DNA from: an uncultured bacterium
GTDB lineage: Bacteria; Hydrothermota; UBA3073; NMUJ01
Assembly: GCA_965612795.1 (NCBI GenBank)
Contig: CBFDTI010000003.1
Span: 1-54,334, forward strand
Length of the DNA: 54,334 nucleotides
Reading direction: 5' to 3'
Made by a program: the position numbers and the translations under genes. Position 1 is the first letter of the stretch. Every line of letters starts with the position of its first letter. Positions 30,337 to 46,981 of this stretch are shown in pieces. Below the pieces are notes generated by a model. That model ran no database searches. It saw only the letters and a list, made by a program, of their open reading frames with translations, and was not told where the DNA came from.

Positions 30337-33149
30337 TGGACTTGGCTATCGAGATACGTACACGCGATAATGCCGAAGGTAAACGTATAAAGCACGAAAT
30401 AGAGGAGCTAGGCTATAAAGTTGATAAGGTGGAGTTTAGCAAAATATACTTGCTGTTAGGTGTAGAAGCTAAGGAAATAGCCATCCGCATAGCAGAGGAG
30501 ATACTCATCGATAATGTGTGGGAGACATATGAGATTAGAGAATATCCATTTAAACCACAAGACGGCGAACTGATAATCGCATACAATCCTGGAGTCATGG
30601 ATCCCGTTGCCAACACCGCACGTGCAGTGATAAGCGAATGTGGCTATAAGATAGAAGAGGTAAAAGTCATGCGTAAGTATAGGTTATACGGTATACAGCG
30701 TGAAGCTATCACCCGTATAGCGGAAAAGCTGTTGTATAATAAGTTAATCGAACACATCAGTACAGGTGAACATATACTGTCGGTACCTACCTATAAGTTA
30801 GAAATTGTGACTGTACCGTTACGTGAGGCGACACCCGATGAGCTGCTATCGATATCACGTAACAGGGCGATGTTCCTGGATCTCAATGAAATGCGATCCA
30901 TACAACAATACTACCGCAAATTGGGGCGTGACCCCACGGATGTGGAGTTAGATACTATCGCAATACTGTGGTCGGAACATTGTTCACACAAGACGTTTCG
31001 TGGCAAGATAGAACTTGATACGCCAGTCGACGGCAAGAAGGTGATCGATAACCTGCTCAAAACATACATCATGCGTGCAACGGAGGAGATAGCACATCCA
31101 AGAGTATTATCAGCATTTAAGGATAACGCTGGTATTTTTGCGCTCGACGATAAATACGGGGTGGCGGTGAAAGTAGAAACACATAACCATCCATCAGCAC
31201 TCGAACCGTACGGTGGTGCAGCCACCGGTATAGGTGGTGTGATACGTGATATCTTGGGTGCGGGGTTAGGTGCCAAACCTATCGCCAATATCGATGTATT
31301 TCTGTTTGGGCCACTGGAATTACAACATGAGGAGCTACCACCGGGCGTATTGCATCCACGCCGTATAGCGAAGGGCGTGGTTAGTGGTGTACGTGATTAT
31401 GGTAACAAGATGGGTATACCGACAGTTAATGGTGCGGTGATATTCCATCCAGGTTACGTAACAAACCCTGTGGTCTATTGTGGCTGTGTAGGTGTAATAC
31501 CAAGGGATAAAATTCACAAGCAAGTACAACCTGGTGACGTAATTGTATTAGTGGGGGGTCGTACCGGGCGTGATGGTATACATGGGGCGACATTCTCGTC
31601 AGGTGAGATGGATACATCAACTGAGGCAAAGTTCATGACCGCAGTACAGTTAGGTGACCCCATCACTGAGAAGAAGCTACAGGATGCATTGCTAGTGGCA
31701 CGTGATAGAGGATTGTATCGGGCGATCACCGATTGTGGTGCTGGTGGTATCGCCACCGCGGTGGTGGAGCTTGGTAAATACACAGGTGCAGAGGTTGAGC
31801 TCAACCGTGTACCACTGAAATACGAGGGGTTAACCTATCGCGAGATATGGATAGCGGAGTCACAGGAACGTATGGTATTAGCGGTACCTCCGGATAAGGT
31901 GGACGAACTGGTAAAAGTATTCCAATCATATAACAGTGAAGCCACCCCTATTGGTAAATTTAGGTCCGATGGTAAGATTATATTGAAGTACGATGGTAAG
32001 CTGGTGGGTGAACTTCACACCAAATTTATATTTGAACAACAGCCGTTGGGCTGCAAAAAGGCAAGATTACCTAAATGTGTCGAATCGCCACACCGTACAC
32101 GTCAATATGATAGCAATACCATACGTGGATTGTTGTTAAAAATGTTAGCATCACCATTTGTTGCATCAAAAGACTGGGTGGTACGCCAATATGATCATGA
32201 AGTACAGGGTGGTAGTGTAATCAAACCACTCTATGGTGATGCAGCAGTTATCACACCATGGCCCGGCACTACATATGGTATAGCTATTGGGTGTGGGATC
32301 AATCCACTCTATTCCATACATCCATACAAGATGGCACAAGCAGCGGTTGACGAAGCCGTACGTCAGATAGTTGCAGTAGGTGGTAACCCTGATAACATAG
32401 CATTGCTGGATAATTTCTCATGGGGTAACCCTGAAGATCACGAAAAATTAGGTGCACTCGTGTTGGCAGCTAAGGGGCTGTACGATGCAGCTAAGGAGTT
32501 AGGTACGCCATTCATATCGGGTAAGGATAGCCTGCACAACGAGTTCAGGTTGGGTGATAAAAGTATATCGATACCACACACGTTGTTGGTCACAGCTATC
32601 GGTATCGTGGAAGATATCAATTACACGGTTACGATGGGGTTGAAACACATAGGGGATAGGATCGGTATCGTTGGCTCTACACTTAGCGAGTTGGGTGGCT
32701 CATTGTGGGCATATGTTGAGAACGAGCCATACGGTATTGTGCCAACATTTGATGGTGAGCTTGCCAGGAGGGTATACAGAGCGGTACATGAACTCATACA
32801 ACAGGGTATAATCGTAGCAGCACATGATGTATCAGAAGGCGGTATAGGGGTGGCAGTTGTCGAGATGGCACAAACTGGCCAGAAGGGGGTTACCATCGAT
32901 ATCAACAAAATACCACATGAGGGTGAGCTACGAGAATGGGAATTGCTGTTCTCGGAATCTAACTCGAGGGTGGTTGTTGAGATAGCAAAGGGTAAAGAAG
33001 CTGCATTCTTAGATATACTGGCGAAAAACGGTGTACCAGGTGACATAATCGGTGAAGTTATACCCGATAGCGAGGTGAAGTTCATCCATAATGGTGAGCT
33101 GCTGTTCTCAGTACCACCCGTGATACCACGGTATCCGGATTTCGCATAG
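30333..33149 (+). CDS. purL: Phosphoribosylformylglycinamidine synthase PurL with fused N-terminal PurS-like region, no glutaminase domain
   Basis: WSEHCSHK, KVETHNHPSALEPYGGAATGIGG, DCGAGG, ESQERM, QYDHEV, GKDSL, HDVSEGG. The first 150 aa or so contain 'PGVMDPVA' (PurS-like). Confidence 0.93.
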   Translation: MMDLAIEIRTRDNAEGKRIKHEIEELGYKVDKVEFSKIYLLLGVEAKEIAIRIAEEILIDNVWETYEIREYPFKPQDGELIIAYNPGVMDPVANTARAVISECGYKIEEVKVMRKYRLYGIQREAITRIAEKLLYNKLIEHISTGEHILSVPTYKLEIVTVPLREATPDELLSISRNRAMFLDLNEMRSIQQYYRKLGRDPTDVELDTIAILWSEHCSHKTFRGKIELDTPVDGKKVIDNLLKTYIMRATEEIAHPRVLSAFKDNAGIFALDDKYGVAVKVETHNHPSALEPYGGAATGIGGVIRDILGAGLGAKPIANIDVFLFGPLELQHEELPPGVLHPRRIAKGVVSGVRDYGNKMGIPTVNGAVIFHPGYVTNPVVYCGCVGVIPRDKIHKQVQPGDVIVLVGGRTGRDGIHGATFSSGEMDTSTEAKFMTAVQLGDPITEKKLQDALLVARDRGLYRAITDCGAGGIATAVVELGKYTGAEVELNRVPLKYEGLTYREIWIAESQERMVLAVPPDKVDELVKVFQSYNSEATPIGKFRSDGKIILKYDGKLVGELHTKFIFEQQPLGCKKARLPKCVESPHRTRQYDSNTIRGLLLKMLASPFVASKDWVVRQYDHEVQGGSVIKPLYGDAAVITPWPGTTYGIAIGCGINPLYSIHPYKMAQAAVDEAVRQIVAVGGNPDNIALLDNFSWGNPEDHEKLGALVLAAKGLYDAAKELGTPFISGKDSLHNEFRLGDKSISIPHTLLVTAIGIVEDINYTVTMGLKHIGDRIGIVGSTLSELGGSLWAYVENEPYGIVPTFDGELARRVYRAVHELIQQGIIVAAHDVSEGGIGVAVVEMAQTGQKGVTIDINKIPHEGELREWELLFSESNSRVVVEIAKGKEAAFLDILAKNGVPGDIIGEVIPDSEVKFIHNGELLFSVPPVIPRYPDFA

Positions 33150-33194
33150 AGGCAAATACACGTAAGTTTGCGTTAACTCTATGATGATTTAAAA

Positions 33195-36100
33195 CTACTT
33201 CACCAACACCAGCTTCTTTATGTCTCTGAATCCACCAACCTTCAGTTTACAGAAGTACACACCCGCAGATAGCTTACAGCCACGCTCGTCGGTACCATCC
33301 CATACCACCGTGTATGTGCCAGGTGGTTTATTGCTATCCACTAATGTACGTACTAACCTACCTGTTATATCGTAGAGCTTGAGGCTCACACGTAGTTTCT
33401 TACCATGTGCAGCTGCTACCTGGTACTTAATCGTGGTAGCTCCATTGAATGGATTGGGAAAATTCTGATACAATCTATTCACACCCACGTGTGGAAGCTC
33501 TTCCAGCCCCACGATTATCGAATCTGCCAGCACGTATATTTTGGGTTCATACCCTGTAAAGTATACACCGAAGTTGGCCAACCCCGCACCCTCCGTTTCT
33601 ACATATTCGTTATGCAGCACATCATTCATGTAGTACGTTGAATCCGGCGATATACCCAGTGAATCTATCGGTATTTGTAGCACTACGTAGTTACCACCTT
33701 CGTAAAAGTTGAACCCACATATAACGATATTGTCATCCGCCTTACGTAAGAATGCATATACAGTAGGTGAAGACGTACTTATTCGTACAATCTCATCCGT
33801 CCTAAGTGCTGGGAATGTATTCCTTATCCAGCACAACCTCCTGTAGTATGGCCGTAAGTTATATGGGTCACTCCAATCAATCCTATCCCGTAGTGTGAGC
33901 TCACCCACCTCCTGCCCCGCGTATATGAGCGGTATACCGGGTATTGTGAACAACAATGCAGCCATAAGTTTGGTCTGTTCCACTGTATGATACGCTATGT
34001 AGCGGGTTTCGTCATGATTTTCGAGAAACCTCAACGGAAACCTATCCTTTGGAAACGCATACCCGTAGTTTGTTATAACCTGATGTAATGCATCTATCTC
34101 ATCACCGGTGACACCACCATCAAATATATTGGCGAAATTCACCGGCGCTGCATGGTGTAGATTCCAGTCATATGCGAGATCGAACCTATGTCTGAAATAT
34201 CTGAAATCGGCCGCTGAAGCCTCTGCCAAAAGCAACGCATCGGGTTTTTTGGACTTCACACGTTCACGCCATATACGCCAATAGGTTGAATCCCTACCTT
34301 CCACCGCCCATGCTAAGTCACATCTGTAGCCATCGATATCGAACTCCGTCACCCAATACTCTGCCATATCTAGTAAATATGATTTTAGGTGTGGGTTGTT
34401 GAAGTTCAAATCTGGCAGGTCGGCACCTGCTGTCCATTGGTAGTTACCGTATTCATCCCACATGAAGTAGTCGTAGAAATGTGAGTACTCGCCATAGCTC
34501 TGTGCATCTATCATCCACGGATGTTGGTTAGAACAGTGGTTGATCACGTGATCGATGATGACCCTTATTCCATATGTTTTACATGTAGCAAGTAATTCAT
34601 GCAGATCCTCCTCTGTACCATAATCTGGTCGTATCCCGTAGTAATCGAGTACCGAATATCCGTTGGTATATGCGCTGGGGTTTATCGGCATAAACCATAT
34701 GCAGTTGATACCAAGGTCCTTCAATTCCGGTATACGAGCACGTACAGCGTTGAAGTTACCTTCTTCGCTGAATGATTGTACGAATATCTCGTAGATGATG
34801 GCATCCCTTATCCACTCTGCGATACTGTCGGTGGTTGCAACACTAACCGCACCATCTTTAACCCTTATAAACCTACGTGCAAAGTCTGTATTCCCGTCAG
34901 GGTCGGTAACTTTCAGAGTAAAGTAATATTCGCCATCCGTTGGTGGTACCTCAAACCATGTAGTGGCTGCGTCCGGATCATCAAACTCTATAGGTGCAGG
35001 GTTTGTTGTATCCGCGTACCACAAGTATGTGAGTGGATCACTGTCCGGGTCGTGACTTGTGCTACCATCCACCCGTATGCGGTTGCCATCGACATATACC
35101 GTATCGATGATAGCTTTGGGACTATGATCCACATACAGATGTAGGTTTATGCAGGGCGAATATCCCCAATAACCTGCACTATTCTGTGCTCTACATGAGA
35201 TGATGTTGTCACCTTCGCTTAATTTTACCTGTACCGAGAAGCATCCCCCCACTACGGGGATAGTGGTGTCTACCTCATTGACCGTAAGTATCGCCCAACT
35301 TATGGTGGTATCACTTATCGTACCATCAACTGTATAGATGGAATCGTACACCTCACCACTACGGGTGAGCAACCGCACCACCGGCCCTGGATTATACAAG
35401 GAGCTATCGATCTCATACGCCGATATTGTAGCTATACCCCTACCGATTGCATCAAGTGATACCATACGGGGGCCACCTAACCTACCTGCAGGTATATAAT
35501 TCCGTAACAGCTTATGTTGTAGCTCATCGGATTCGAAGAACATCACATCGTATATATCGGGATCTATGAAGTGTCCGCTACCACCAACCTCGGAATCGGG
35601 TTCGAACCCTGCCACCCACGTAAATACATAGAAATACCATGGTACGTTGTAGCTACCGAGTATCGTTTCGAGTGTCCCCAGATCGAGCTCAAAAACAAAG
35701 CTATCATCCACCACAGTTACAGGTATGGGGTCACCAATTACAGGTGGATACCTTTGTATATACAGGTGATTATCGACAGCTGTATCGCACATCGGTGAAT
35801 TAGGGTCAACAATTGTGAAAAATACACCGGTACCATTCCATTCACGGGTTTTGACCTCCAAAGCTTGTGGTAGCTCAACCATTGGGCCCACCGCATCACT
35901 TGCTATCTGGATGCCCAGCTTTGTATAACCCGTGATATTACGTATATGTACGCTAAACCTCAGCGAATCACCGCTTTCACTTATATGCAGTGCTATAAGG
36001 TCGCAGCTACCATCTTCCACACATACCGGATACGCGTAATGTTCGTCACACACTGCATCAACCGCATGGTAACCGCTACCCGATGGATATATACCAAAAA

Positions 36101-37079
36101 CCGAACTCACGTATCCATCGTTACCAGCGGTATCAGATAACGATATCGATATCACGTGTACCCCATACCCGAGGTTACTTATATTCGCGGTGATCACCAA
36201 GCTATCAGTATCGAATACATGTGGTATTACGCTATCGTCGACTGTCACGATGATCGAACTTTCATCAATCGGTGCACCATCATCATTCGTACGTACACGT
36301 GCGAATATGTTCACTGTATCGACATCATAGAATACCGCACAATATGGAGGTGAATCAACATACACACGTGGATGCAGCTCCTTGGTCACAACTATTACGG
36401 CATTTTGGAACTCACCCACATATACAGGGTTGTCGGGATCGGTCACCCATACGTAGCGGTTGACTACAAACTTATACTCGTACGTACCTTCGTAGAGGTT
36501 GACAATTTTCTCCCATACGTATGGGTTATCAGTCTGTATCATAGTCATTGACGGGTCGTTTGGTACCCAGCCATTGAAGTTACCGGCAAGGTTTACTTGT
36601 GTAACCTCACCTCCGATATATGGGAGGTTACAACTACGTGTATCGAGTACAAACCTAACCGCTACGATAGCGGGTGGCGTACCCATGTATATATGCCAAT
36701 CCCGACTGTTGTTGTTATCCCATTCATTTAGATTATTGTGGAAACAGAAATCTATCTGAGTAACCGACTCATCAGTGGCCAACTTTATGTTCCATATTGT
36801 ATCATCAAGCTGTGTCATGGGTGACTCTATTGCTGCACCGTCACCCCAAGCCCAGCTACCAGGTGGCCACAGGTCTTCTGGTGGTTCGTTCCATCCGTTT
36901 ATACCCCAGTGTAGGTTGATCCACCCGCTGCTTTCTGATAACATACCACATCGTGTATTGTAATAGATTGTGACAGAATCGCCAGGGTTGGGAATTTCGG
37001 GCGTCCACCACGCCTGGTTTTGTGCCCAAATTGGTACTATACAAAGGAGTGAAATTAAAATAGTATTCGCTCTCCACAT
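33195..37079 (-). CDS. Secreted multidomain GH13 alpha-amylase/amylopullulanase-like enzyme with starch-binding modules and T9SS-like C-terminal domain
   Basis: GH13 regions DHVINH, DGYRCDLA (nucleophile), LAEA (acid/base), FLENHDE. N-terminal 'LHWGINGW' CBM-like and 'LAGNFNGW...YEYKFVVN...W..DP.NP' CBM48-like modules, PKD-like 'DGSTSHDPDSDPLTYLW', CTD 'QNFPNPFN...WDGTD...AGVYF'. Confidence 0.9.
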   Translation of the reverse strand: MWRANTILISLLCIVPIWAQNQAWWTPEIPNPGDSVTIYYNTRCGMLSESSGWINLHWGINGWNEPPEDLWPPGSWAWGDGAAIESPMTQLDDTIWNIKLATDESVTQIDFCFHNNLNEWDNNNSRDWHIYMGTPPAIVAVRFVLDTRSCNLPYIGGEVTQVNLAGNFNGWVPNDPSMTMIQTDNPYVWEKIVNLYEGTYEYKFVVNRYVWVTDPDNPVYVGEFQNAVIVVTKELHPRVYVDSPPYCAVFYDVDTVNIFARVRTNDDGAPIDESSIIVTVDDSVIPHVFDTDSLVITANISNLGYGVHVISISLSDTAGNDGYVSSVFGIYPSGSGYHAVDAVCDEHYAYPVCVEDGSCDLIALHISESGDSLRFSVHIRNITGYTKLGIQIASDAVGPMVELPQALEVKTREWNGTGVFFTIVDPNSPMCDTAVDNHLYIQRYPPVIGDPIPVTVVDDSFVFELDLGTLETILGSYNVPWYFYVFTWVAGFEPDSEVGGSGHFIDPDIYDVMFFESDELQHKLLRNYIPAGRLGGPRMVSLDAIGRGIATISAYEIDSSLYNPGPVVRLLTRSGEVYDSIYTVDGTISDTTISWAILTVNEVDTTIPVVGGCFSVQVKLSEGDNIISCRAQNSAGYWGYSPCINLHLYVDHSPKAIIDTVYVDGNRIRVDGSTSHDPDSDPLTYLWYADTTNPAPIEFDDPDAATTWFEVPPTDGEYYFTLKVTDPDGNTDFARRFIRVKDGAVSVATTDSIAEWIRDAIIYEIFVQSFSEEGNFNAVRARIPELKDLGINCIWFMPINPSAYTNGYSVLDYYGIRPDYGTEEDLHELLATCKTYGIRVIIDHVINHCSNQHPWMIDAQSYGEYSHFYDYFMWDEYGNYQWTAGADLPDLNFNNPHLKSYLLDMAEYWVTEFDIDGYRCDLAWAVEGRDSTYWRIWRERVKSKKPDALLLAEASAADFRYFRHRFDLAYDWNLHHAAPVNFANIFDGGVTGDEIDALHQVITNYGYAFPKDRFPLRFLENHDETRYIAYHTVEQTKLMAALLFTIPGIPLIYAGQEVGELTLRDRIDWSDPYNLRPYYRRLCWIRNTFPALRTDEIVRISTSSPTVYAFLRKADDNIVICGFNFYEGGNYVVLQIPIDSLGISPDSTYYMNDVLHNEYVETEGAGLANFGVYFTGYEPKIYVLADSIIVGLEELPHVGVNRLYQNFPNPFNGATTIKYQVAAAHGKKLRVSLKLYDITGRLVRTLVDSNKPPGTYTVVWDGTDERGCKLSAGVYFCKLKVGGFRDIKKLVLVK

Positions 37080-37084
37080 AATAC

Positions 37085-37111
37085 AAAAGGGAGGGGGATA
37101 TCCCCCTCCCT
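37085..37111 (-). terminator. GC-rich palindromic hairpin with T-tail, directly upstream of the amylase start
   Basis: AGGGAGGGGGATATCCCCCTCCCT (37088-37111) is a perfect 24-bp palindrome; on the minus strand it continues TTTGTATT ATG. Confidence 0.75.
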
Positions 37112-37134
37112 CATAGCCGTCACCTTACGATGTA

Positions 37135-39228
37135 TCAGCGTAGTAAGATAAGTTTGCAGGTTTTGCTAAACTCGTGCTTACCAGAAGCCGATCGTACGTC
37201 CATCCTGTAGAAGTATACGCCAGGGGCTACCCTTCTACCGCGGCTATCTCTACCGTCCCAGTTCACCTCGTACAGACCTGGTTTGTGCGCGCCATCCACA
37301 AGCGTAGTTATCCTTTCACCCAACAGATTATACACGGCGATGGTCACCTCACCTGCTTTAGGTAGCTGATACCGTATAGTGGTGGTACGTGTGAACGGGT
37401 TAGGTATGTTCTGTGCCAGCATATATATACGTGGAGCTTGCGTCTCCTCCACACCTGTGGTAATATCATCAACCGAACGTGGCAGTATCTCGTAACCACT
37501 CCAGTATGGAACCGAAGGATCGTACTGACTCACCACACCCACTACATTGAATGGTCCCGTAGGTGCTGTTGTACCATCAATATCTGTATCTCTGTCGATC
37601 CACATCGTACAGCTGCCAGTTGCATCAGTAATCGTTACACCACCACTGCTGCCCTCAGGTGGGAACGCATCCGTTGTGGTGACATTTCTGATCATAACCA
37701 ACCTACCCTCATAGAGCTCACCCATGGTGTCGGCAAGATCTGCACATGTGATGACAAGCGTATCAAACGGTACACTTTCGTGTACAATCTCAAGGTTGGT
37801 AACATTGGTAAGCTCAGTCAACCCCTTATAGTAGCTTACGGTGGCAGTAAACTTAACTTCATTACCCACTTCTACTGTATTCGTGAAGTCCGCATCCCAT
37901 ACTGCGATACCGGCAGCAAAATCCTGTATGAACGATGGACCACCAAACTCATCCGCTACTGTAACTACACCGCGGATGAATAGCTCCTCACCATCCTGGA
38001 TAGATATACCATCGGGATCGTCGTTAGCAGCCGGCCCGTATATGAACGAACCGAACACCTCAACTGGTACCCAGTAAACACTACCTGTATCTTTGAGCTC
38101 AACGAAGTGGTTCTCCAAGAAGCCTGCCTCTGTATCTTTACCATTAACCCCGTACTTGTGCTCGATACGTTTGGGGCTACCAGCCGGGAACAGCAACGCT
38201 ACGGTGTAGATGCTATCGCCAGCAACCTCGTCCGGATATACACCATCGTCCCTCATCTGTAATTCAGGTGGATACATGGGTTGGTCCCACACCCACACGA
38301 GTGGCGGTACCGACCCCGCTATGTACACGCTATCCACACTATATACGGTATCGAGTGCACCCTCTGCATACCAATACCCCTGATCACGTATAGCGTAGAA
38401 TACATAACGCATATCGACACGGAATATGGCGGTTACATCCTGCATTAGGATATCCTCAGGCCCTATATTGTCGAAGTACCTGAGAGGTAACACCTGGAAG
38501 CCACCCGTATCGACGGGGTTACCTTCCTCATCACGTGGATCAAACTCAAACGTATAGTTGGGACCCGACTCCCATATACCGTCGTAAGGGTTTTCGTTAC
38601 CCCAAAGTGTGTCCGGACATATATGATATTTATACTCGATCACTGTACCACGACCGACATGGAACTCAACCGGCAACACATAGATGGTATCCCAAGGTTG
38701 CATGATGTTAGCGTCGTTCTCTTCCCATGTAAGCGGCGGTGTACCACCTCTGACTGTGGGTATATCAATACCGGGACGGAAGTTACCCATCACCTCCTGT
38801 ACTCTGAGATCTACTTGGAAGATGACCGTACCCCAGATCGGCAGTTCGGTAATATCGCCAAAATATACTGTATCGAGCACCTGTGTGCTACCGGTGAGCT
38901 CAAAAGTCCTGTTCCCTGGTATCGGTTCCCAATAATCGCCACCACCCGCATAATGGATTACATATTTGTATTCGACTGTACCCGTGGCATCACCGAAATC
39001 GATAGTTATCGAGTATATGCTATCACCTTCTGGATCAGTAAGTATATTATCGTAACCACCCCATGACAGTGGTGGTACGCTACCTCTAACTACGAGTGTA
39101 TCAACGGCGGGATCGAAATTACCCATAAGCATTTGTATGCGCATGTTGACGTTGAAAGTGACCTGGTTCTGAGCGAACCCCGCTACCGCAATGAGCAATG
39201 CCATAAAAATGATAATGGATTGTTTCAT
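37135..39228 (-). CDS. Secreted non-catalytic starch-binding-type protein (CBM20-like repeats, Ca-binding-like motif, OB-fold-like domains, T9SS-like C-terminal domain)
   Basis: Start at ATG 39228 after gaggagg; signal peptide; three 'V.F.V.MR...V.G..PPL.W...EYKY' CBM20-like units; 'MRDDG.YPDEVAGDSIYT' motif; OB-like 'RGVVT...FIQD...GI'; CTD 'QNIPNPF...WDGRD...APGVYFY'. Confidence 0.65.
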   Translation of the reverse strand: MKQSIIIFMALLIAVAGFAQNQVTFNVNMRIQMLMGNFDPAVDTLVVRGSVPPLSWGGYDNILTDPEGDSIYSITIDFGDATGTVEYKYVIHYAGGGDYWEPIPGNRTFELTGSTQVLDTVYFGDITELPIWGTVIFQVDLRVQEVMGNFRPGIDIPTVRGGTPPLTWEENDANIMQPWDTIYVLPVEFHVGRGTVIEYKYHICPDTLWGNENPYDGIWESGPNYTFEFDPRDEEGNPVDTGGFQVLPLRYFDNIGPEDILMQDVTAIFRVDMRYVFYAIRDQGYWYAEGALDTVYSVDSVYIAGSVPPLVWVWDQPMYPPELQMRDDGVYPDEVAGDSIYTVALLFPAGSPKRIEHKYGVNGKDTEAGFLENHFVELKDTGSVYWVPVEVFGSFIYGPAANDDPDGISIQDGEELFIRGVVTVADEFGGPSFIQDFAAGIAVWDADFTNTVEVGNEVKFTATVSYYKGLTELTNVTNLEIVHESVPFDTLVITCADLADTMGELYEGRLVMIRNVTTTDAFPPEGSSGGVTITDATGSCTMWIDRDTDIDGTTAPTGPFNVVGVVSQYDPSVPYWSGYEILPRSVDDITTGVEETQAPRIYMLAQNIPNPFTRTTTIRYQLPKAGEVTIAVYNLLGERITTLVDGAHKPGLYEVNWDGRDSRGRRVAPGVYFYRMDVRSASGKHEFSKTCKLILLR

Positions 39229-39249
39229 TATAACCTCCTCTTGCTGCAC

Positions 39250-39276
39250 AATTTACTTCATCTATTTAAAAGTCAA
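39250..39276 (-). promoter_or_regulatory. Putative internal promoter TTGACT-N15-TAAATT
   Basis: Minus strand reads ttgact tttaaatagatgaag taaatt, between the PorV-like gene and the CBM20-like gene. Confidence 0.55.
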
Positions 39277-39291
39277 CCCTAATCCGTGGGC

Positions 39292-40311
39292 TCAGAATCT
39301 CGTCGTAACACTTATATTCTGCACATTAGAGAGCCTGCCAAACGATTCATATGCATAGTCTATACGCATGGAACGTAACACACCACGCATACTGGTGGTG
39401 AGTCCCACACCAAATGTGAACCCCTCCTCCGAATCCACCATGAAAAGCGATTTGTATCCAGCCCTCAGTGATAACATGTTATTGAATACATACTCGAGAC
39501 CAAGGTTGAGCGATTCCGTGTTGTCGTTCGGATGTAATGCATCACACGCTACAGTTAACCGATGTGTAGCAGTGTTTACCAAATCAACCGATACCCCAAC
39601 CCTCAACAATAGCGGTAGGTCGAACCTTCCCGTTGCCAAGTATGCATTGATGAATGGATTATTACCAGCCATATCGGGTGCTATATCATGTTGTACAAGT
39701 AGATCACTACCCGTCATCTGCATCTTCGTACCGTAGTTTGATATACTCATACCGAATCTTGCACCCTTAAACTGTGTCTTAAACAACGTACCTATGTCGA
39801 TAGCGAACCCCGTCGCCCTACAGTTCATGATCCTCTCCTCGATATATTTTACATTGAACCCAATAATAAATCTATCCGTAAGCGGCCTCGCATAGGAGAG
39901 CCCGAACGCAAAGCTACCACAGTAAAACCATACCCCTGTACCTTCGGGGTCGAGCTCGGTGGTCTGCTCCATTTCACCGATGTCGAGATAAGTGAAGTTA
40001 GCCCCTATTGTACCAAACCTCTTTATTGGTAGCACCACACCGGCATATTCGAACGATATACCAGCAAACCATCTCGTATGTACGAGTACAGCTTCGTTAT
40101 GTGTCAACCGCGCTATACCGGCGACATTCCAGAACATGGCGGTTGCATCGTCAGCAACCGAAACAAATGCACCTCCCATACCGAGTGCACGTGGCCCTAC
40201 CGGCATCGTCAGGAACGGTGCTGCGGTTGTACCCACCTTGGTGATGATTCCATGTAGTGGTAATATCCAGCTGACCATTATCACTATCATTATATAACGT
40301 ATGGTACGCAT
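39292..40311 (-). CDS. PorV/PorQ-family outer-membrane beta-barrel
   Basis: GTTAAPFLTMPVGPRALGMGGAFVSVADDATAMFWNVAG is the PorV/FadL-like N-terminal signature; LRAGY, IDYAY, C-terminal Phe; start at ATG 40311 after aggagg. Confidence 0.85.
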   Translation of the reverse strand: MRTIRYIMIVIMVSWILPLHGIITKVGTTAAPFLTMPVGPRALGMGGAFVSVADDATAMFWNVAGIARLTHNEAVLVHTRWFAGISFEYAGVVLPIKRFGTIGANFTYLDIGEMEQTTELDPEGTGVWFYCGSFAFGLSYARPLTDRFIIGFNVKYIEERIMNCRATGFAIDIGTLFKTQFKGARFGMSISNYGTKMQMTGSDLLVQHDIAPDMAGNNPFINAYLATGRFDLPLLLRVGVSVDLVNTATHRLTVACDALHPNDNTESLNLGLEYVFNNMLSLRAGYKSLFMVDSEEGFTFGVGLTTSMRGVLRSMRIDYAYESFGRLSNVQNISVTTRF

Positions 40312-40321
40312 CGTGTACCTC

Positions 40322-43300
40322 CTATTTAATGATGGCAAATTTGCCAATTTTTTCACCTATACCGGGCGCTTCTATGTGATAGATATAAACCCCATAGGAG
40401 ACTTCGAGGTTATCCTTGGTTAACAGATCCCATCTACAGGTACCGTCGTCGAGTGGCGCCTCATGTTCTATTTTCCTGACGAGTTCACCCCTTAAGTTGT
40501 AAATCCTTATGGTACATTTAGCTGGCAGGTGGATAAAGTGTATCTCACGCGGCCCCCTACCACTGGTGTATGGGTTATGCGGTTCCCACATGGCTACTGC
40601 AACGTAGGGGTTGGGTACAACTTTGACCCGACTCAGATCGTACTTAGCCTTGTTAGTATCCACGTATGCACCTTTAACGGTAAACCTGTAGACATCGTTG
40701 GATAGGAACGGTTTCCTCATGTAGATGTAAAAGGTATCGCCTGCAGTCGGTAGTGCCGCGGTGGTATCGGATGCGAACTCAACCACCCACGTAGGTGTAA
40801 GCACCGTATCAGGTGGTATCTGTTGAAGGAATATGATCCTTTCGTTCGGTGATAACGAAGAGTCGGGTCTACCCTTTTCATGGAATGCAAACTCAACACG
40901 TTCACCTGTGTTGTGGTTTATCACGGTGAAGTTAACCGGTACCGCAGGTAGATGTAATGGATAAGGCCAGGTTGTGCTAAACTCTGTGGATGTATCGAGT
41001 ACGGATTCACTGAACACTATGATGTAATCAGCGGGATAGCGTTTACCCGCATAGGCAGGAGTTACAAGTGTGGTTATACTCTTTACCGGCAATAAGGAGG
41101 TATCATTCCACCCGGTAAGTGTGTCGATCACCTCAATGTACTCATCGTTATCCAAGTACAAGCGCAAACCATGCCGTATGTCACGCTCTTGCCAGGGCTT
41201 GACCTCTGGACAGTCTTTAACCAACGTATCCGGGTTATCAGGATCAGTAACATCTACCCAAGTGAACGATTTGGTACTGAATGCGGAATCTTTAAACGTA
41301 ACCTCGTAAGTGTGGCCATCCCTCACCTCACGTGGATCGATGATCTCAACCGCTACCTCACCTGTAGCATACCCCGATATGTGGTCAAACTCTTCGAGTG
41401 AAGGCGGTACGTAACCAGCAGCTGGTGCAGCAGGTGTAACGGCTACTACATTGATAGCGGTGTGTATCTCACCAGTGGGATCGACTGTGGCAAATTTAGG
41501 TGTCTCAGATGGTGGGATACCAAGCTCCACACTACCTTTATCATAAGCTGTAACCGCATAGAAGTAAGTGAACCCATTCTCTACGTTGGTATCAACAAAA
41601 CAGTGTCGTAACCCGGTGTTATCACCAAGATAAAATTGTACACCATTAATCGCAATGGGGAAGAACCCACTATCGGCATCGATAAGATCATACTGTGCAA
41701 TGGGTACATTAAATATCACGTTACCGAAACCATCGGTAATCTCACCAGCATCTTCCCAAGTTGGCCATGTAGCTTTGTAGATCTTATACCCTTCGAAATC
41801 GTAACCGGTCATCGGATCATACGAGTGTTCAGCTCTATCGTCCCAGTATAGGATGACCTTGCGATCACCAGCTACCGCTTTGACAGTGGGTAACTCAGGT
41901 GCTTTCGCAAACCTATAGTTCCAGTTATAAATCTGCTGCACAATATGTGTGGTACGGACGATAGCTTCACGATTCTCGCCAAACAGTAGCGCAATAGAGA
42001 AACGTTCAGTCTGACCAGGCCTAAGCGAGAAGTATCCCGACCCCCATATGAAGTCGCCATCGGCACCACCGGGAGGTAGCTCGATCGTACTGAAATAACC
42101 TGGCTGTAGACATCCCCACAGTTGTTCGTCGTTACGTAGCTTGACCTTATTGAATGGATGAAAGAAATAGAATGAAGTGAGCCCAATCTGGTCGGACTCG
42201 TCTTTGTCAGTGGCATCAAAATCAGGCTCCCCCGCTGTAGGTACGCCATCACCTTCTCCATAGTCACCGGTACCTGGTAGCCCATCAGCACCTACATCGT
42301 CGGTGAGCGGATCCCAATCCCCATCATTGTCAATACCGTCGTCACGCCGTTCGTCAATGAGTGGATTGTCAAGCCCCTCACCCGTAAGCCAATCGACGTA
42401 TTTATAACCCAGATGCAGGTTGATATTTTCATCGATCAACCCGTTAAGATTGTCATCAAACCTATTATGTGGATCCTCCTCCACTGTATCACCCGGCATT
42501 ATCCGTATAGTATCGGTGCGAAACCTTATCAACACACCAGTATCTGGCATCGTGGTAACCGTTCTCTCAAACGTATTGTAATCTATAAGCACGATATCAT
42601 CCCCTACGGAGTAGACCTTAGGTTGAAAATCCTGTATCTGTAGGGTTGGCCCTGGCCCATACTGGCCATCGTTATCGTCATCGATACCATTCCATGGATC
42701 ACCGGGAGTTTCGAGGAATGCTGACCCTGCATAACCCACAGGTGTCCATCCAGTGTTACCTATACCATCGTAATCATAACAATATACGACACGATCCTCA
42801 CGTATGAAGTCGGCCATATCGTCGTGCGAATCACCATCACCACCGACAATACCACCCCAGATCATACCGAACACCACCTTATGTAACACAGAAGTGCCAA
42901 CATTGGTGATATCGAAATGCCAGAATATACAATCCTGTGCAAGCGGGTGTGACCATTGGAACCCCCTCACCCCTACACGTAAGCCGAGCCCCCTACGGGT
43001 GGAGTCAGCCGAATCTGGATAGAACGGGAACTCCTCATCGCTGTTGTCATCCATCACGTAATAACTTTCCTGGTCGGCATTCATGACATTTTTACCAAAG
43101 TAACCGTTCCAGGCGCCGGGCCAGCCAGGGTCATCGGGATGGTCCATCCTATCGGGCCAAAACGGGGGCCACGACTCCGGTATGTGGCTCATAGCGATCA
43201 GATCGGTGTCAGGGTTGGCATATCCGGGGATGGGTTCCCAACCCCAAAATGTGGTACCATCCGGCGAATATTCGTTGTTACCACGGGGACCATCGGCTAC

Positions 43301-43645
43301 TTCGACTGAATGTATGTAAACAATGCTATCCCTGTAGAGGGTGTCGTTACCGATGATGGTATCGATAACCCGTATGGTGATGGGTACCTCTGCACCTACC
43401 ATTATGCTGACATCACCTATGTATTCGTGACCTGAGTTGATAGGCCATTCACCACCATAATCCTCAGCAGGTGATATACGTCCGATAAGCCCATAATTGA
43501 AGAAAGTGGTACGTACGCGGTTACCAGAGTGTACCCCCTTGCGCCTTTCGTAGTAGGAGCCACGCCCTTCGTATGGGTTTTGTGCACCCCACAGTGTGGT
43601 AACCAAAAATATCGCTGAAAGCATAAATCTTATGTAGGTTTTCAT
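40322..43645 (-). CDS. Large secreted hypothetical protein with Asp-rich Ca-binding-like repeats, FN3-like segment and atypical T9SS-like C-terminal domain
   Basis: Signal peptide; DGIDNDGD-type repeats; 'VILYWD...FEGYKIYK...YFYAVTAYD' FN3-like; C-terminus 'VKVVPNPY...IRIYNLRGELV...WDL...GVYIYH...KFAIIK'. Confidence 0.7.
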   Translation of the reverse strand: MKTYIRFMLSAIFLVTTLWGAQNPYEGRGSYYERRKGVHSGNRVRTTFFNYGLIGRISPAEDYGGEWPINSGHEYIGDVSIMVGAEVPITIRVIDTIIGNDTLYRDSIVYIHSVEVADGPRGNNEYSPDGTTFWGWEPIPGYANPDTDLIAMSHIPESWPPFWPDRMDHPDDPGWPGAWNGYFGKNVMNADQESYYVMDDNSDEEFPFYPDSADSTRRGLGLRVGVRGFQWSHPLAQDCIFWHFDITNVGTSVLHKVVFGMIWGGIVGGDGDSHDDMADFIREDRVVYCYDYDGIGNTGWTPVGYAGSAFLETPGDPWNGIDDDNDGQYGPGPTLQIQDFQPKVYSVGDDIVLIDYNTFERTVTTMPDTGVLIRFRTDTIRIMPGDTVEEDPHNRFDDNLNGLIDENINLHLGYKYVDWLTGEGLDNPLIDERRDDGIDNDGDWDPLTDDVGADGLPGTGDYGEGDGVPTAGEPDFDATDKDESDQIGLTSFYFFHPFNKVKLRNDEQLWGCLQPGYFSTIELPPGGADGDFIWGSGYFSLRPGQTERFSIALLFGENREAIVRTTHIVQQIYNWNYRFAKAPELPTVKAVAGDRKVILYWDDRAEHSYDPMTGYDFEGYKIYKATWPTWEDAGEITDGFGNVIFNVPIAQYDLIDADSGFFPIAINGVQFYLGDNTGLRHCFVDTNVENGFTYFYAVTAYDKGSVELGIPPSETPKFATVDPTGEIHTAINVVAVTPAAPAAGYVPPSLEEFDHISGYATGEVAVEIIDPREVRDGHTYEVTFKDSAFSTKSFTWVDVTDPDNPDTLVKDCPEVKPWQERDIRHGLRLYLDNDEYIEVIDTLTGWNDTSLLPVKSITTLVTPAYAGKRYPADYIIVFSESVLDTSTEFSTTWPYPLHLPAVPVNFTVINHNTGERVEFAFHEKGRPDSSLSPNERIIFLQQIPPDTVLTPTWVVEFASDTTAALPTAGDTFYIYMRKPFLSNDVYRFTVKGAYVDTNKAKYDLSRVKVVPNPYVAVAMWEPHNPYTSGRGPREIHFIHLPAKCTIRIYNLRGELVRKIEHEAPLDDGTCRWDLLTKDNLEVSYGVYIYHIEAPGIGEKIGKFAIIK
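42185..42695 (-). repeat. Asp/Gly-rich putative Ca-binding repeats within the 1107-aa protein
   Basis: GIDDDNDG, FDDNLNGLIDE, DDGIDNDGDWD, DDVGADG, GEGDG, DKDESDQ. Confidence 0.55.
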
Positions 43646-43657
43646 ATTACCCCCTGA

Positions 43658-46312
43658 TTAAAATTCTACTGATAACCCTATCTGTATTTGACGTGGTTCG
43701 GAATAGAAATCCGGCCGTATGAACCAGTTGGGATCAGCATCACCACCAGCCGTACGTTGTTCAAGCGTGTAAGTAGCTCTACCTGTGTCTTCAAATACCC
43801 CATATTCGTTACGTATGTCGAACAGATTGAAGATCTTGACAAGCAATGCCACCGCTAAGCGTCCAAGTTTAACTCTATAGGTATAGTTGAAATCAACATC
43901 AACCGTCGGCGGGCGACGTTCACAGTTCTCTTTAAGTCCCGTGTATAAAGTGCGACCTACACGCGTACCCTGTACCACTCTTGGAGTGTATGGTAGTCCT
44001 GACCCATACTTGAATATGAAGCTGGTTTCAAAGTTTGTGCCCCCAAATATTAGCGTTACGTTAAGTGTATGACGTTGATCCCAATCCAACGGAACAACCT
44101 CCTTACGTGGCTCTCTACCTGCACGTGCGTCGTTGAATGCATCTTCGGGGTTGGACGATGTACCTTCAGCTATTTGGTAAGTATAAGCCAAGCTGAACCC
44201 GAAATTGCTGCCACCGATACGATATTTGTCGAACGAAAACGTTATACCACGTACATTCGCATAGTCCTTATTTACATACTTCACATATTTGGTACCTGGT
44301 ATCACGGTGTTAATCTCGGGTGAGGTACCCACCCAACCTCTTATGTCACGATAGAATAGAGTAATATCCATACGCATATCGTTACGGAACCCCTGTTGTA
44401 GGCCTATCTCGTACATTACCGTACGTTGGGCATCAAGGTCTGCATTACCTAAGATTGTGCTTATACCGGAGGTTTTAGGTACCTCAAATTCGGGATTTTT
44501 GTAGAGGTATTCGAATTGCGGTATCTGTAAGAAGTGCCCATAAGAGAAGTGTATAACACCCTTATCGGTTATCGGGTAAGCTATACCCAAGCGTGGGCTG
44601 ATCTGCTTTTTGGGGTTAGCTTTCTTCCACCAGATCTTTTCACGTTCTTCGAGCGTCATCTGTTGATGTTCGGGACGCCATGGATCCAATATGTTAGGGT
44701 CGGCTGGGTCACGAAGTACTACGCCATCGGGTTCGAAGTAGTCGAACCTCACCCCTACGTTTACTATCATGTCTTTAAACTCTATCTTATCTTGTACATA
44801 GCATGAAGCTAAATATGGGTGTTTATGATAACGATTATGGTTAGGTGCGGTGAAGTCAGGTACGTAGGGTTCGAAAGGTACAACTTCGACACCTTCAACA
44901 GTTTTGGGGATGATCTCAAACTCATGCATGAACAAGTCGTATAGCTGCAGTTCGAACCCTGCCTTCATTTCATGTGAGGGCCTCACCTGTGAGGTAAGGT
45001 CAACCCTCAACGTGGTGGTTTTGCTCCATCGATAGAAATGCTGCATCTTAGTACCCGCATGTGCAAACGAGTATGGAGGTGCAGTAAGTGAGTCAGGATG
45101 TACGTAACGTGGATCGTACGGATCCTCATACACGTAGTGCTTATAGCTGGAGTAGAAATGCGCAATATTAAAGGTATAGAAGGTTTTGGGGCTTATCGTA
45201 TGCGTAAGTGTAAGCTGATGATTGTACCCAGTTTTGAACCGCTTCCAGTCGCCGTCTGGATTGTATTTGAAGTAATGATCGTATTCCTTGTAGTTGATGC
45301 GATTGGCGAGATACGCGTAGCTGAGATTCACACCCTTGGTAATCTGGTAAAATAGTTTACCCTGAAAGAACAGCTTACGATAGTAGTTCATAGGCACAAT
45401 GCGGTTATCGCCTAGCTCACCGGTGGGTAAGAATTTACGTATACCATATAGCCATCCATCATTGTAGTAGTAACGTGAGGTTAAGAAGAACGTCAGGTTT
45501 TTGGTGAAGAGCGGTCCCGATAGTGTGAAACGCACGTTTTTGTTTTGGAATGGGTTAAACTTATTCAACCCCGTAAACTTAGTATCAGTAGTGTAGTAAT
45601 CAGCCAACCATACCACGAAGTTACCTGAGAACTCATCACTACCCTTCTTAGTGACTATGTTTACCACGCCTGACATCGCCTGCCCATATTCGGCATTGAA
45701 TGTACCGCTCACTACTTGTAGCTCCTGTATAGCGGAGTTGTCCACCTCAACCGCTATATCACCAGAGTAAGGGTCGGTAACTGAGATACCATCTATCATA
45801 TAGGCAACCTCACCGTAGCGACCACCCCGTATGTGACCTTTGACAACACCTGCTTGTAGATCGAGTAGCTCATAGAATGTTTCAACCGGCATCACTTCTA
45901 TATCGCGAGACTTAACGATAGATAGGCTGGAGGTTAGGTCACGTCGTATGATTTTACGTTCGGCGACTACGACGATTTCGCCCAACTCCAGCACGGTAGG
46001 GGTGAGTTCAAAATTTTGCACCGTAGTGAAATCCGCCGATACGCGTACACCTTCCACACGCATACGTTGGTAACCCATCATAGAAGCGACAAGCGTATAT
46101 TCGCCAGGTGGTACATTGAGTATGAAGTAGTAGCCGTTGGAATCAGTAGCCGCACCCAGGTGAGTACCTTCAACTATCACGTTTGCGAGGGCGAGTGGTT
46201 TACCGGTTTCGCGATCGATAACTCTACCGGTGATCTTACCGGTGACGCCTGCAAATAGAAATGTTGTAAGTAAGTATCCCACGGTAAGAAAAATGGGAAT
46301 TAACCGCTTCAT
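43658..46312 (-). CDS. TonB-dependent receptor (carboxypeptidase-regulatory-like N-domain, plug, barrel)
   Basis: TGKITGRVID..TG.PL..ANV, HIRGGR..EVAYMIDG, SGTFNAEYG.AMSGVVNIVTK, SPRLG.AYP, N.F...PRQIQIGLSVEF (terminal Phe). Confidence 0.92.
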   Translation of the reverse strand: MKRLIPIFLTVGYLLTTFLFAGVTGKITGRVIDRETGKPLALANVIVEGTHLGAATDSNGYYFILNVPPGEYTLVASMMGYQRMRVEGVRVSADFTTVQNFELTPTVLELGEIVVVAERKIIRRDLTSSLSIVKSRDIEVMPVETFYELLDLQAGVVKGHIRGGRYGEVAYMIDGISVTDPYSGDIAVEVDNSAIQELQVVSGTFNAEYGQAMSGVVNIVTKKGSDEFSGNFVVWLADYYTTDTKFTGLNKFNPFQNKNVRFTLSGPLFTKNLTFFLTSRYYYNDGWLYGIRKFLPTGELGDNRIVPMNYYRKLFFQGKLFYQITKGVNLSYAYLANRINYKEYDHYFKYNPDGDWKRFKTGYNHQLTLTHTISPKTFYTFNIAHFYSSYKHYVYEDPYDPRYVHPDSLTAPPYSFAHAGTKMQHFYRWSKTTTLRVDLTSQVRPSHEMKAGFELQLYDLFMHEFEIIPKTVEGVEVVPFEPYVPDFTAPNHNRYHKHPYLASCYVQDKIEFKDMIVNVGVRFDYFEPDGVVLRDPADPNILDPWRPEHQQMTLEEREKIWWKKANPKKQISPRLGIAYPITDKGVIHFSYGHFLQIPQFEYLYKNPEFEVPKTSGISTILGNADLDAQRTVMYEIGLQQGFRNDMRMDITLFYRDIRGWVGTSPEINTVIPGTKYVKYVNKDYANVRGITFSFDKYRIGGSNFGFSLAYTYQIAEGTSSNPEDAFNDARAGREPRKEVVPLDWDQRHTLNVTLIFGGTNFETSFIFKYGSGLPYTPRVVQGTRVGRTLYTGLKENCERRPPTVDVDFNYTYRVKLGRLAVALLVKIFNLFDIRNEYGVFEDTGRATYTLEQRTAGGDADPNWFIRPDFYSEPRQIQIGLSVEF

Positions 46313-46336
46313 TTTACCCCCTTATGAGTTGGAATT

Positions 46337-46363
46337 AAAATAATGTCAGCTCGATATGGTCAA
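46337..46363 (-). promoter_or_regulatory. Putative TBDR-operon promoter TTGACC-N15-TATTTT
   Basis: Minus strand reads ttgacc atatcgagctgacat tatttt; agggggt RBS downstream. Confidence 0.6.
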
Positions 46364-46432
46364 TGATATATGTAAGATTGTGAGTTAGCTTTACACGAGA
46401 GAATTTTTGCTATCCATTAAGAGGAGGTTAAA

Positions 46433-46981
46433 ATGGTTTCACGTGATGAGCTGTTAAGGTTATTGTATCAGAAAGTGAAGACCAAAAATCTGATCAAACA
46501 TATGTTAGCAACCGAAGCCTGTATGCGGGCGCTGGCGGATAGGATGGGTGAAGACATGGAAAAGTGGGGGTTGGTGGGATTAGTACATGATATAGATTAT
46601 GAGGAGACCAAGGATAACTTCGCCCAGCATGGGCTTGTCTCCGCACGTATGTTGAAGGAGATGGGGTTACCACAGGACATTATTGATGCAGTCAAAGCAC
46701 ATGCGGGTAAGAAGGAACCAACGACTAAGATGGAATGGGCTTTATACGCGGTGGATCCACTCACCGGCCTCATAGTGGCGGCTGCACTTATGCATCCATC
46801 GAAGTCACTGAGGGGGATAGATCGCGATTTCGTGCTACGAAGGTTCAAAGAGAAACGATTTGCGGCAGGTGCCAACCGTGACCAGATACGACAGTGTGAA
46901 AAGCTGGGGTTAACGCTTGAGGAGTTTATCGACATATGCGTGAAGGCGATGCAGGGTATAGCCAAAGAGTTAGGGTTATGA
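46433..46981 (+). CDS. HD/HDIG-domain metal-dependent phosphohydrolase
   Basis: KHMLATE, HDIDYE, QHG, KAH, AVDPLTGLI, KRFAAGANR; RBS gaggagg. Confidence 0.85.
   Translation: MVSRDELLRLLYQKVKTKNLIKHMLATEACMRALADRMGEDMEKWGLVGLVHDIDYEETKDNFAQHGLVSARMLKEMGLPQDIIDAVKAHAGKKEPTTKMEWALYAVDPLTGLIVAAALMHPSKSLRGIDRDFVLRRFKEKRFAAGANRDQIRQCEKLGLTLEEFIDICVKAMQGIAKELGL

Follow-up and report, generated by a model that had tools for sequence, protein, structure and literature searches.

The closest described counterparts of the locus analysed here are the Sus systems of Bacteroides. In these, a TonB-dependent importer is encoded in a fixed gene pair with its surface partner (SusC/SusD, RagA/RagB), beside a non-catalytic starch binder (SusE/F) and a surface enzyme of glycoside hydrolase family 13 (GH13; SusG), and a genome holds many paralogous copies whose neighbours change with the substrate. 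SusD serves SusC by a lid mechanism. SusC/SusD pairs are the marker used for finding and counting glycan-utilisation loci, and in definitions of the PULDB type a polysaccharide utilisation locus (PUL) is an adjacent susC-like/susD-like gene pair. Here we describe a locus in a 54,334-nucleotide (nt) stretch of DNA from an uncultured bacterium (the window), which resembles the Sus systems in each of these arrangements but differs from them in its parts. Its TonB-dependent receptor fails the SusC model. The partner gene encodes a protein of 1107 amino acids (aa) that shows no similarity to SusD, is about twice its size and is not a lipoprotein. The partner, the starch binder and the GH13 enzyme carry type IX secretion system (T9SS)-type tails instead of lipid anchors, and a third gene, for a PorV-like barrel, is obligatory. 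We call receptor, partner and barrel the trio.

For the barrel, the nearest comparisons are with the T9SS itself. In the attachment complex of Porphyromonas gingivalis (PorZ-PorQ, PorU-PorV), a T9SS-exported protein can retain its tail and be held on a barrel of the PorV/PorQ family, as passages of PMC10202324 describe for the PorZ tail on PorQ. In Flavobacterium johnsoniae, according to parts of PMC12618676, type-B cargo needs cognate, neighbouring PorP/SprF shuttles, and the PorP/SprF barrel sets the final location of that cargo.

We lean towards reading the locus as a starch or alpha-glucan utilisation locus of a T9SS-bearing, SusD-free bacterium, in which a barrel-anchored partner would do a job like that of SusD. 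In the literature outside subscription journals that we searched, we found no published description of the receptor/1107-aa/barrel trio.

Results

The locus (33195-46312) consists of five co-oriented open reading frames (ORFs) on the minus strand (Table 1). The original prediction, made from the letters alone, had described five co-oriented genes with neither a SusD-like lipoprotein nor a regulator among them; all five ORFs were found, and genes for SusD or for a regulator occur neither in nor beside the locus. The products had been named as a TonB-dependent receptor, a secreted protein with Ca-binding-like repeats and a C-terminal domain (CTD), a PorV/PorQ-family barrel, a CBM20-like repeat protein with a CTD, and a GH13 enzyme with several carbohydrate-binding modules (CBMs) and a CTD. 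The matches given below bear out each of these identities.

We scanned with the alignment of the 1107-aa family, taking one genome per species, and obtained 516 confirmed relatives, from which 80 loci with 85 family genes were kept and their ORFs scored with the window's five proteins. A receptor gene lies upstream of 77 of the 79 family genes that have at least 300 nt of upstream sequence, the remaining two being L061, at a contig start, and the second copy in L073. Where at least 1100 nt follow the family gene, a barrel gene is immediately downstream in 64 of 67; among the other three, L038 and L051 have it immediately upstream, and in L047 a fragmented gene comes first and then the barrel. 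Altogether the barrel stands directly upstream of the family gene four times, three times between receptor and family gene and once at a contig start (L061). The median gaps are 13 nt between receptor and partner (n=55) and 12 nt between partner and barrel (n=59). The order in L038 and L051 is receptor, barrel, partner; in these two loci a gene of the SurA/PPIase type comes directly after the trio, and in L065, L067 and L086 it follows with a few genes in between. The titles of the locus records name Stahlbacteria, Kryptonium, Calditrichota, KSB1, Neomarinimicrobiota, Ignavibacteria, Melioribacter, Rhodothermales and other Bacteroidota, with one record each labelled Acidobacteriota and Spirochaetes. 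Melioribacter, Ignavibacterium, Caldithrix and Rhodothermus, which also appear in these titles, are genera with cultivated strains. Conservation of the trio, on which the original prediction depended, thus extends over records of WOR-3/Stahlbacteria, Calditrichota, KSB1, Marinimicrobia, Ignavibacteria and Rhodothermales.

The three genes also share their history. In FastTree trees of partner, barrel and receptor alike, the row nearest to the window is L020 (Stahlbacteria). Every tree also counts L022 (Calditrichaceae) and L036 (Caldithrix) among the window's closest rows, with L032 above L036 for the receptor. The nearest relatives of the receptor are those linked to 1107-aa orthologues in L020, L022 and L032, and all three window proteins group apart from the paralogues of their own genome. 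On the trees 2 label changes suffice; shuffling gave means of 7.7 and 5.8, and in none of 500 shuffles was the count so low. Since the 'linked' rows were chosen via the partner and own-genome rows are few, the result is that orthologous sets are inherited together, and it goes no further.

Within its assembly (1.42 Mb in 128 contigs, estimated completeness 99.5%), a small marine genome of WOR-3/Stahlbacteria type, the window makes up contig C3. Comparing the five proteins with every ORF of this assembly by BLAST, and then scanning the neighbours with Pfam, revealed at least five further trios, hence at least six in all, on contigs C41, C40, C84, C2 and C4 (Table 1), together with partial or orphan members on C80, C104, C47, C20 and at a second site on C2. 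The partners in the further trios are shorter (600-760 aa), and hhalign places them in one superfamily with the 1107-aa protein (100%, E 3.1e-53, query 10-727 on 7-506). The trio on C2 is part of a second locus of glycan type (C2:9531-25802; L018, L019), in which a GH63-like enzyme, an SSF transporter, the receptor, a 712-aa partner, a 188-aa gene and the barrel are followed by tail-bearing TIG/NHL proteins and a pair of GHL10 enzymes, of which one carries a fused AmiA-like amidase.

The receptor has a signal peptide, a CarboxypepD_reg-like N-terminal domain, a plug and a barrel, and Pfam assigns it CarbopepD_reg_2 (77.7 bits), Plug (27.5 bits) and OMP_b-brl_4 (41.3 bits); the receptors of the window and of the paralogous trios match barrels of the OMP_b-brl_4/OMP_b-brl_3 type. 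Against the SusC/RagA model TIGR04056 it reaches 61 bits for a cut-off of 368.25, over residues 26-225 only, that is, over the N-terminal domain and the plug. A sequence search of the PDB returned matches at the level of the plug and no SusC/RagA chain. Judged by these scores, the receptor lies outside the SusC/RagA family. In the window's genome SusD_RagB and SusD-like_3 (PF07980, PF14322) gave no match, and SusD_RagB was likewise absent from all 151 sampled genomes of the same phylum.

What kind of protein, then, accompanies the receptor? The 1107-aa protein begins with a type-I signal peptide without a Cys near the cleavage region, as read by eye. An Asp-rich, Ca-loop-like stretch follows at about 320-500, with DxDxDG-like motifs at 322 and 397, then an FN3-like segment at about 580-740 and a C-terminus homologous to T9SS tails. 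Searched whole, it has no Pfam or NCBIfam family at E<=0.01, and its Pfam scan in four pieces gave no SusD model at E<=10. Pfam scans of all 36 members of the family alignment found CHU_C only, in 4 of the 36. A profile search of the PDB with that alignment gave 0 matches, the protein atlas matched the whole protein to unnamed clusters alone and offered nothing named and usable for residues 22-330, and self-BLAST detected no internal repeats. The 1107-aa protein is therefore no SusD homologue, for want of any SusD match in the Pfam and NCBIfam scans, and no known enzyme, for want of any family match in the same scans, family members included. A match to SusD or to a known enzyme in the Pfam, NCBIfam and PDB searches would have spoken against the original prediction, which saw in this protein a functional analogue of the SusD lid.

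The family is large and almost entirely unnamed. At E<=1e-3, 3095 of 7998 scored candidates are homologues; the best 120 are 43-98% identical, those with names are all 'hypothetical', and the match runs the whole length in most of them and covers only 69-72% of the query in about a third. The closest public homologues carry WOR-3 or Candidatus Stahlbacteria labels. Among 1.84 billion cluster representatives, 8776, 4818 and 1459 match at E<=1e-3, 1e-10 and 1e-30, respectively. Residues 31-750 and 991-1107 are strongly conserved and residues 751-990 weakly; between phyla the identity amounts to 43-55%, and about 70 residues of the core are invariant, many of them acidic (Asp, Glu), with His and Trp besides. 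In L016 (C14:1753-6748), a 951-aa protein has the N-terminal core of the family (25% identity, residues 36-316) joined to an ordinary tail; it adjoins a second tail-bearing protein, and neither receptor nor barrel is nearby. The core domain of the family thus also occurs outside trios.

Such a core could belong to an enzyme of some new family, for instance one that cleaves or modifies glycans, held at the surface with the barrel as a mere anchor. The invariant Asp, Glu and His residues and Trp, the identity kept across phyla and the lack of any detected binding module in the 1107-aa protein are in keeping with this explanation, but the neighbourhoods of the family make it improbable. A gene of CBM20-like or GH13 type lies within 6 kb of 37 of the 52 family members in the tree that could be scored, the window included, leaving 15 without one (14 further tree members could not be scored). 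In 36 of the 80 loci a relative of the CBM20 protein is encoded no more than about 9 kb from the partner gene, usually just downstream of the barrel. In 14 loci without starch genes we scanned 56 of the 100 flanking ORFs with Pfam and found other sets of carbohydrate-active enzymes (CAZymes) in nine: GH26 and CBM9 proteins (L051); a LacI regulator, a sulfatase and a GlcNAc 2-epimerase (L038); GH29 and GH31 (L052); GH94 with PF10091 (L029, L041, L049); and ABC transporters with glycosidases of MGH1-like or rhamnosidase type (L065, L067, L086). Among the scanned flanking ORFs of L062, L076, L093 and L099 no CAZyme was found beside the trio, and the flanks of L070 fell outside the scan. The co-variation with adjacent CAZymes that the original prediction had proposed as a check is thus present, different subclades of the family tracking different enzymes. 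The same invariant core stands beside sets for alpha-glucan, mannan, fucoside, beta-1,2-glucan-type and other substrates, whereas an active site would be expected to vary with the substrate. Moreover, short paralogues occur in trios with no CAZyme nearby, and the linkage is to a transporter, not to a particular class of enzyme. One conserved core, changing enzymes and always a transporter fit better with a generic receptor partner whose variable part is substrate-specific, and we infer that the 1107-aa protein is such a partner rather than an enzyme.

The C-terminal domain of the 1107-aa protein is predicted to link it to the barrel. On residues 995-1107 the Pfam tail models stay below threshold (CHU_C, E 0.017; FlgD_ig, E 0.12, 12.8 bits; Por_Secre_tail, E 0.2, 12.4 bits for a cut-off of 27). 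However, hhalign of 17 such special tails against eight ordinary tails of the same genome gives 96.3% (E 1.9e-9, 81 columns). The special tail is thus homologous to type-A tails, yet outside the curated models. It is marked by an insert of about 15 residues after a PNPY motif and, within the genome, is confined to the 1107-aa protein and the 600-760-aa partners of the other trios (40-44% identity). Going by these alignments, residues 995-1107 would be a divergent type-A T9SS tail of a distinct class.

The barrel matches the PorV/PorQ family model NF033709 with 218.6 bits (cut-off 90) over all 326 positions (1-326), and stays below the equivalog cut-offs for PorQ (NF033711, 102.6 of 220 bits), PorV2 (NF052325, 93.1 of 325) and PorV (NF033710, 83.4 of 250). 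Its profile finds the solved PorV 6h3i_F in the PDB (E 2.3e-28), and also 8gl6-8gln. Translation probably starts at Met16 (40311), so that about 10 nt separate the barrel gene from the end of the 1107-aa gene. When barrel and special tail were modelled as a complex, ipSAE was 0.91 in 3 of 3 runs, against 0.00 for the best of 3 controls, none of which was an ordinary tail. The models show 142-150 contacts with at least 94% contact agreement between runs and a partner pLDDT of 78-79. Among solved complexes 116 of 157 attain the mark used, and among mismatched pairs 2 of 215; these figures are a rough guide here because our own alignments were used. The 1107-aa tail is accordingly predicted to bind the barrel, a contact supported by these models.

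The pairing, in which a special-tail protein is always encoded beside a barrel of the PorV/PorQ family, recalls the P. gingivalis attachment complex. Unlike PorZ-PorQ, the pair is multiplied here, at least six times in the genome, and coupled to nutrient receptors rather than to secretion machinery, and unlike both PorQ and PorV the barrel stays below the equivalog cut-offs. With the PorP/SprF shuttles the trio has in common that the cargo gene adjoins the gene of its own specialised barrel. The families differ: the barrel here is of PorV/PorQ type, and the tail appears to derive from type A, with CHU_C, the type-B model, giving only the E value stated above.

The original prediction went further and made the barrel a dock for the GH13, CBM20 and 1107-aa proteins together; on this view a T9SS-built 'utilisome' would surround the receptor. 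All three proteins do carry T9SS-type tails, a CBM20-like gene comes after the barrel in 26 loci, the median distance being 55 nt, and PorV-family barrels bind type-A tails in general, as parts of PMC12618676 and PMC10994853 report. The models favour one element of that proposal, the 1107-aa tail on the locus barrel. Docking of the other two is unsupported: their tails are of the ordinary class, which about 20-25 other proteins of the genome share, and a separate barrel at C4:11111-12163, one of nine PorV-family barrels above cut-off in the genome, is more PorV-like (PorV 120.9 bits versus PorQ 54.3) and is likely, from these scores, to be the housekeeping PorV carrier. Furthermore, members of the 1107-aa family keep their barrel in places where they have no other tailed gene near them, as on C41 and C40, and trio-type barrels and special-tail proteins occur about one to one in the genome (7 and 7-8), which speaks against a dock for all tailed proteins of the locus. 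We therefore judge the wider docking scheme unlikely and keep to a barrel reserved for the partner.

The two remaining proteins point to starch. In the 704-aa protein CBM_20 (PF00686) scores 27.5 bits (cut-off 23.3) at residues 50-124, and three CBM20-like repeats can be read by eye at about 28-100, 142-210 and 272-370, the second and third outside the Pfam match. Its C-terminus is classed as a type-A tail by FlgD_ig (45 bits, cut-off 27) and TIGR04183 (26.6 bits, cut-off 23), a DUF5689-like domain scores 23.6 bits, below cut-off, and a PDB search with the protein gave 0 matches. Self-BLAST detected no repeats in this protein or in the GH13 enzyme. The latter combines N-terminal Ig/CBM48-like modules of starch-binding type, a PKD domain, a catalytic domain at 772-1062 and a type-A tail. 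Pfam gives it Alpha-amylase (PF00128, 175.6 bits) together with AMPK1_CBM, Ig_N_CWD1, Glucodextran_B and PKD. Its tail is above the cut-off of FlgD_ig (34.6 versus 27 bits) and just below that of Por_Secre_tail (26.5 versus 27), and its 232 bits with the MalA-type NCBIfam model are under the cut-off. The best solved relative is AmyA of Halothermothrix (1wza, E 4.7e-37), with which the motifs DHVINH, GYRCD, LAEAS and ENHD, which we take to be GH13 regions I-IV, align with the D/E/D catalytic positions included.

The genes are closely spaced, at 12, about 10, 42 and 55 nt in the order of transcription. All five products have signal peptides and none has a lipobox Cys, by inspection of the N-termini. 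The terminator-like hairpin of Table 1 lies between the CBM20 gene and the start codon of the GH13 gene, and promoter-like sites are no more frequent than in shuffled sequence (25 versus a mean of 29.5). The locus is flanked by purL (30333-33149, plus strand) and an HD-domain gene (46433-46981, plus strand). The five genes provide no inner-membrane step; elsewhere in the window are an MFS gene (25598-26752) and two ABC permease genes (52402-54112). With a genome devoid of SusD and a receptor not of the SusC family, the locus falls outside the strict PUL definition, which rests on the adjacent gene pair.

A co-occurring relative, about 95% identical, has contigs that join 33149 to 46382, omitting 13232 nt, exactly the five-gene locus, and carrying 732 other letters in its place. 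This joint was seen in one RNA-library run (X18) and one DNA run (X12) of one sample. The locus is thus a strain-variable island, since the contigs of the relative skip exactly these 13232 nt. The habitat labels of the runs (marine sediment, hydrothermal vent) rest for the most part on small shares of matching words and are given no weight here.

Two other gene groups of the window deserve mention. At 15996-19525 (minus strand) come first an 880-aa protein in which a Ser/Thr protein kinase is fused to a UvrD-type helicase and then a 296-aa ARPP-1 domain protein, an unusual pair that might be a defence or signalling module. At 6776-10482 (minus strand) the gene of a 298-aa DUF4438 protein lies directly upstream of that of a 937-aa Big_7 protein, whose T9SS tail is of type A.

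Table 1. Features of the five-gene locus (window positions) and paralogous trios on other contigs of the same genome.
Feature	Position	Strand	Basis or remark
TonB-dependent receptor, 884 aa	43658..46312	-	Pfam
1107-aa secreted partner protein, unnamed family	40322..43645	-	no Pfam/NCBIfam family
C-terminal domain of the 1107-aa protein, residues 995-1107	40325..40663	-	alignment and hhalign
PorV/PorQ-family barrel of 14-strand type, 354 aa as listed	39292..40356	-	NF033709
Putative non-catalytic surface glycan-binding protein, 704 aa	37135..39249	-	CBM_20, FlgD_ig, TIGR04183
Terminator-like hairpin, 11 pairs (8 G-C), then T's	37087..37112	-	consensus scan, pattern match only
Multidomain GH13 enzyme, alpha-amylase/neopullulanase type, 1294 aa	33195..37079	-	Pfam
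Paralogous trio	C41 3892-9338		no other tailed protein nearby
Paralogous trio	C40 2264-7946		no other tailed protein nearby
Paralogous trio	C84		receptor cut by contig end
Paralogous trio	C2 9531-16352		one extra small gene (188 aa), partner 712 aa
Paralogous trio	C4		order receptor, barrel, NHL protein, partner

Discussion

On the reading that we favour, the GH13 enzyme and the triple-CBM20 protein would be exported by the type IX pathway via their ordinary type-A tails, and would act on starch, binding and cutting it, on or close to the cell surface, after which the TonB-dependent receptor would import the resulting oligosaccharides. The receptor would form a fixed unit with two co-inherited partners, the non-lipoprotein 1107-aa protein and a private barrel of the PorV/PorQ family. 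The 1107-aa protein would leave the cell through SprA and, with its special and probably uncleaved tail seated on the barrel, would be kept on the outer membrane beside the receptor, much as PorQ keeps PorZ and cognate PorP/SprF shuttles keep type-B cargo. There it may take the part that SusD plays for SusC, either in capturing the substrate and handing it over or as a lid or gate, the conserved core serving contact with receptor and barrel and the variable region, at about 751-990, serving the substrate.

The genome holds much of what this scheme calls for. SprA (414.9 bits, cut-off 200) and PorU (462 bits, cut-off 420) are encoded, as are proteins giving two TonB_C matches and one ExbB match.

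Several observations weigh against this reading. In the export part, GldM (TIGR03517, PF12081), GldK (TIGR03525) and FGE-sulfatase gave 0 matches in the genome, although TIGR03517 was silent in control genomes too, and PorL and PorN were not searched for. With these motor and ring genes undetected in a genome of such completeness, export by a canonical T9SS is not fully established; either motor and ring are very divergent or the genome has a reduced T9SS. At the barrel, the high score of the complex may reflect likeness to PorV-tail complexes rather than specificity of the pair, since the barrel profile matches a solved PorV and substrates bound to carrier loops have been reported and solved (Lauber 2024, in parts of PMC10994853). 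As to the partner, the glycan-binding or lid-like surface and the contact with the receptor are presumed, and the invariant, often acidic residues of its core would also fit an enzyme. Nor does the trio strictly replace SusD: among six other genomes with family members, three gave a single SusD_RagB match each, at 25.6-42.1 bits (G151, G153 and G154, the genomes of L079, L096 and L087; one match has an internal stop), so both designs can coexist. Finally, support for expression is weak. RNA-library contigs (X18, X19) of the relative that is about 95% identical cover all 30 bins, and one of 2813 nt corresponds to 37119-39933, but carry-over of DNA is possible, and contigs, which cannot show transcription, strand or level, are not evidence for an operon.

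The undetected motor genes also bear on a quite different explanation, in which the trio imports nothing. Receptor and barrel would then serve the export or assembly of a large adhesin or a protein of surface-layer type, the receptor being Oar-like, and the linkage to CAZymes would be secondary. An Oar-type receptor of Myxococcus is needed for the secretion of a protease, and the receptor described here is not SusC-like and matches barrels of the OMP_b-brl type. However, it has a plug domain in a genome with TonB and ExbB genes, the family sits in glycan-utilisation loci with ABC or SSF transporters and LacI regulators, and SprA and PorU are available for export. We regard this explanation as the least probable of those considered, and return to an importing receptor with a barrel-held partner.

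Beyond the window, a more tentative proposal, for which the odds seem to us slightly unfavourable, is that the non-Bacteroidia members of the Fibrobacteres-Chlorobi-Bacteroidetes (FCB) group and some Bacteroidota use a third, undescribed outer-membrane design for TonB-dependent glycan import. Each receptor would have a T9SS-exported, non-lipidated partner, drawn from one superfamily with thousands of cluster representatives and fastened by its own PorQ-like barrel via an uncleaved special tail. WOR-3, Calditrichota, KSB1, Marinimicrobia and Ignavibacteria are common in sediments and the dark ocean. These SusD-free phyla look poor in glycan-utilisation loci because SusC/SusD is the marker by which such loci are recognised.

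If this proposal is correct, T9SS-type anchoring, and not lipoprotein export, would build the surface machines for nutrient capture in these phyla, and the trio would offer a searchable marker of glycan-uptake loci where SusD is absent. It would also give a function to a large unannotated family, with its 4818 cluster representatives at E<=1e-10, and would extend the role of PorV/PorQ-type barrels from the housekeeping of secretion to the permanent anchoring of nutrient-capture proteins.

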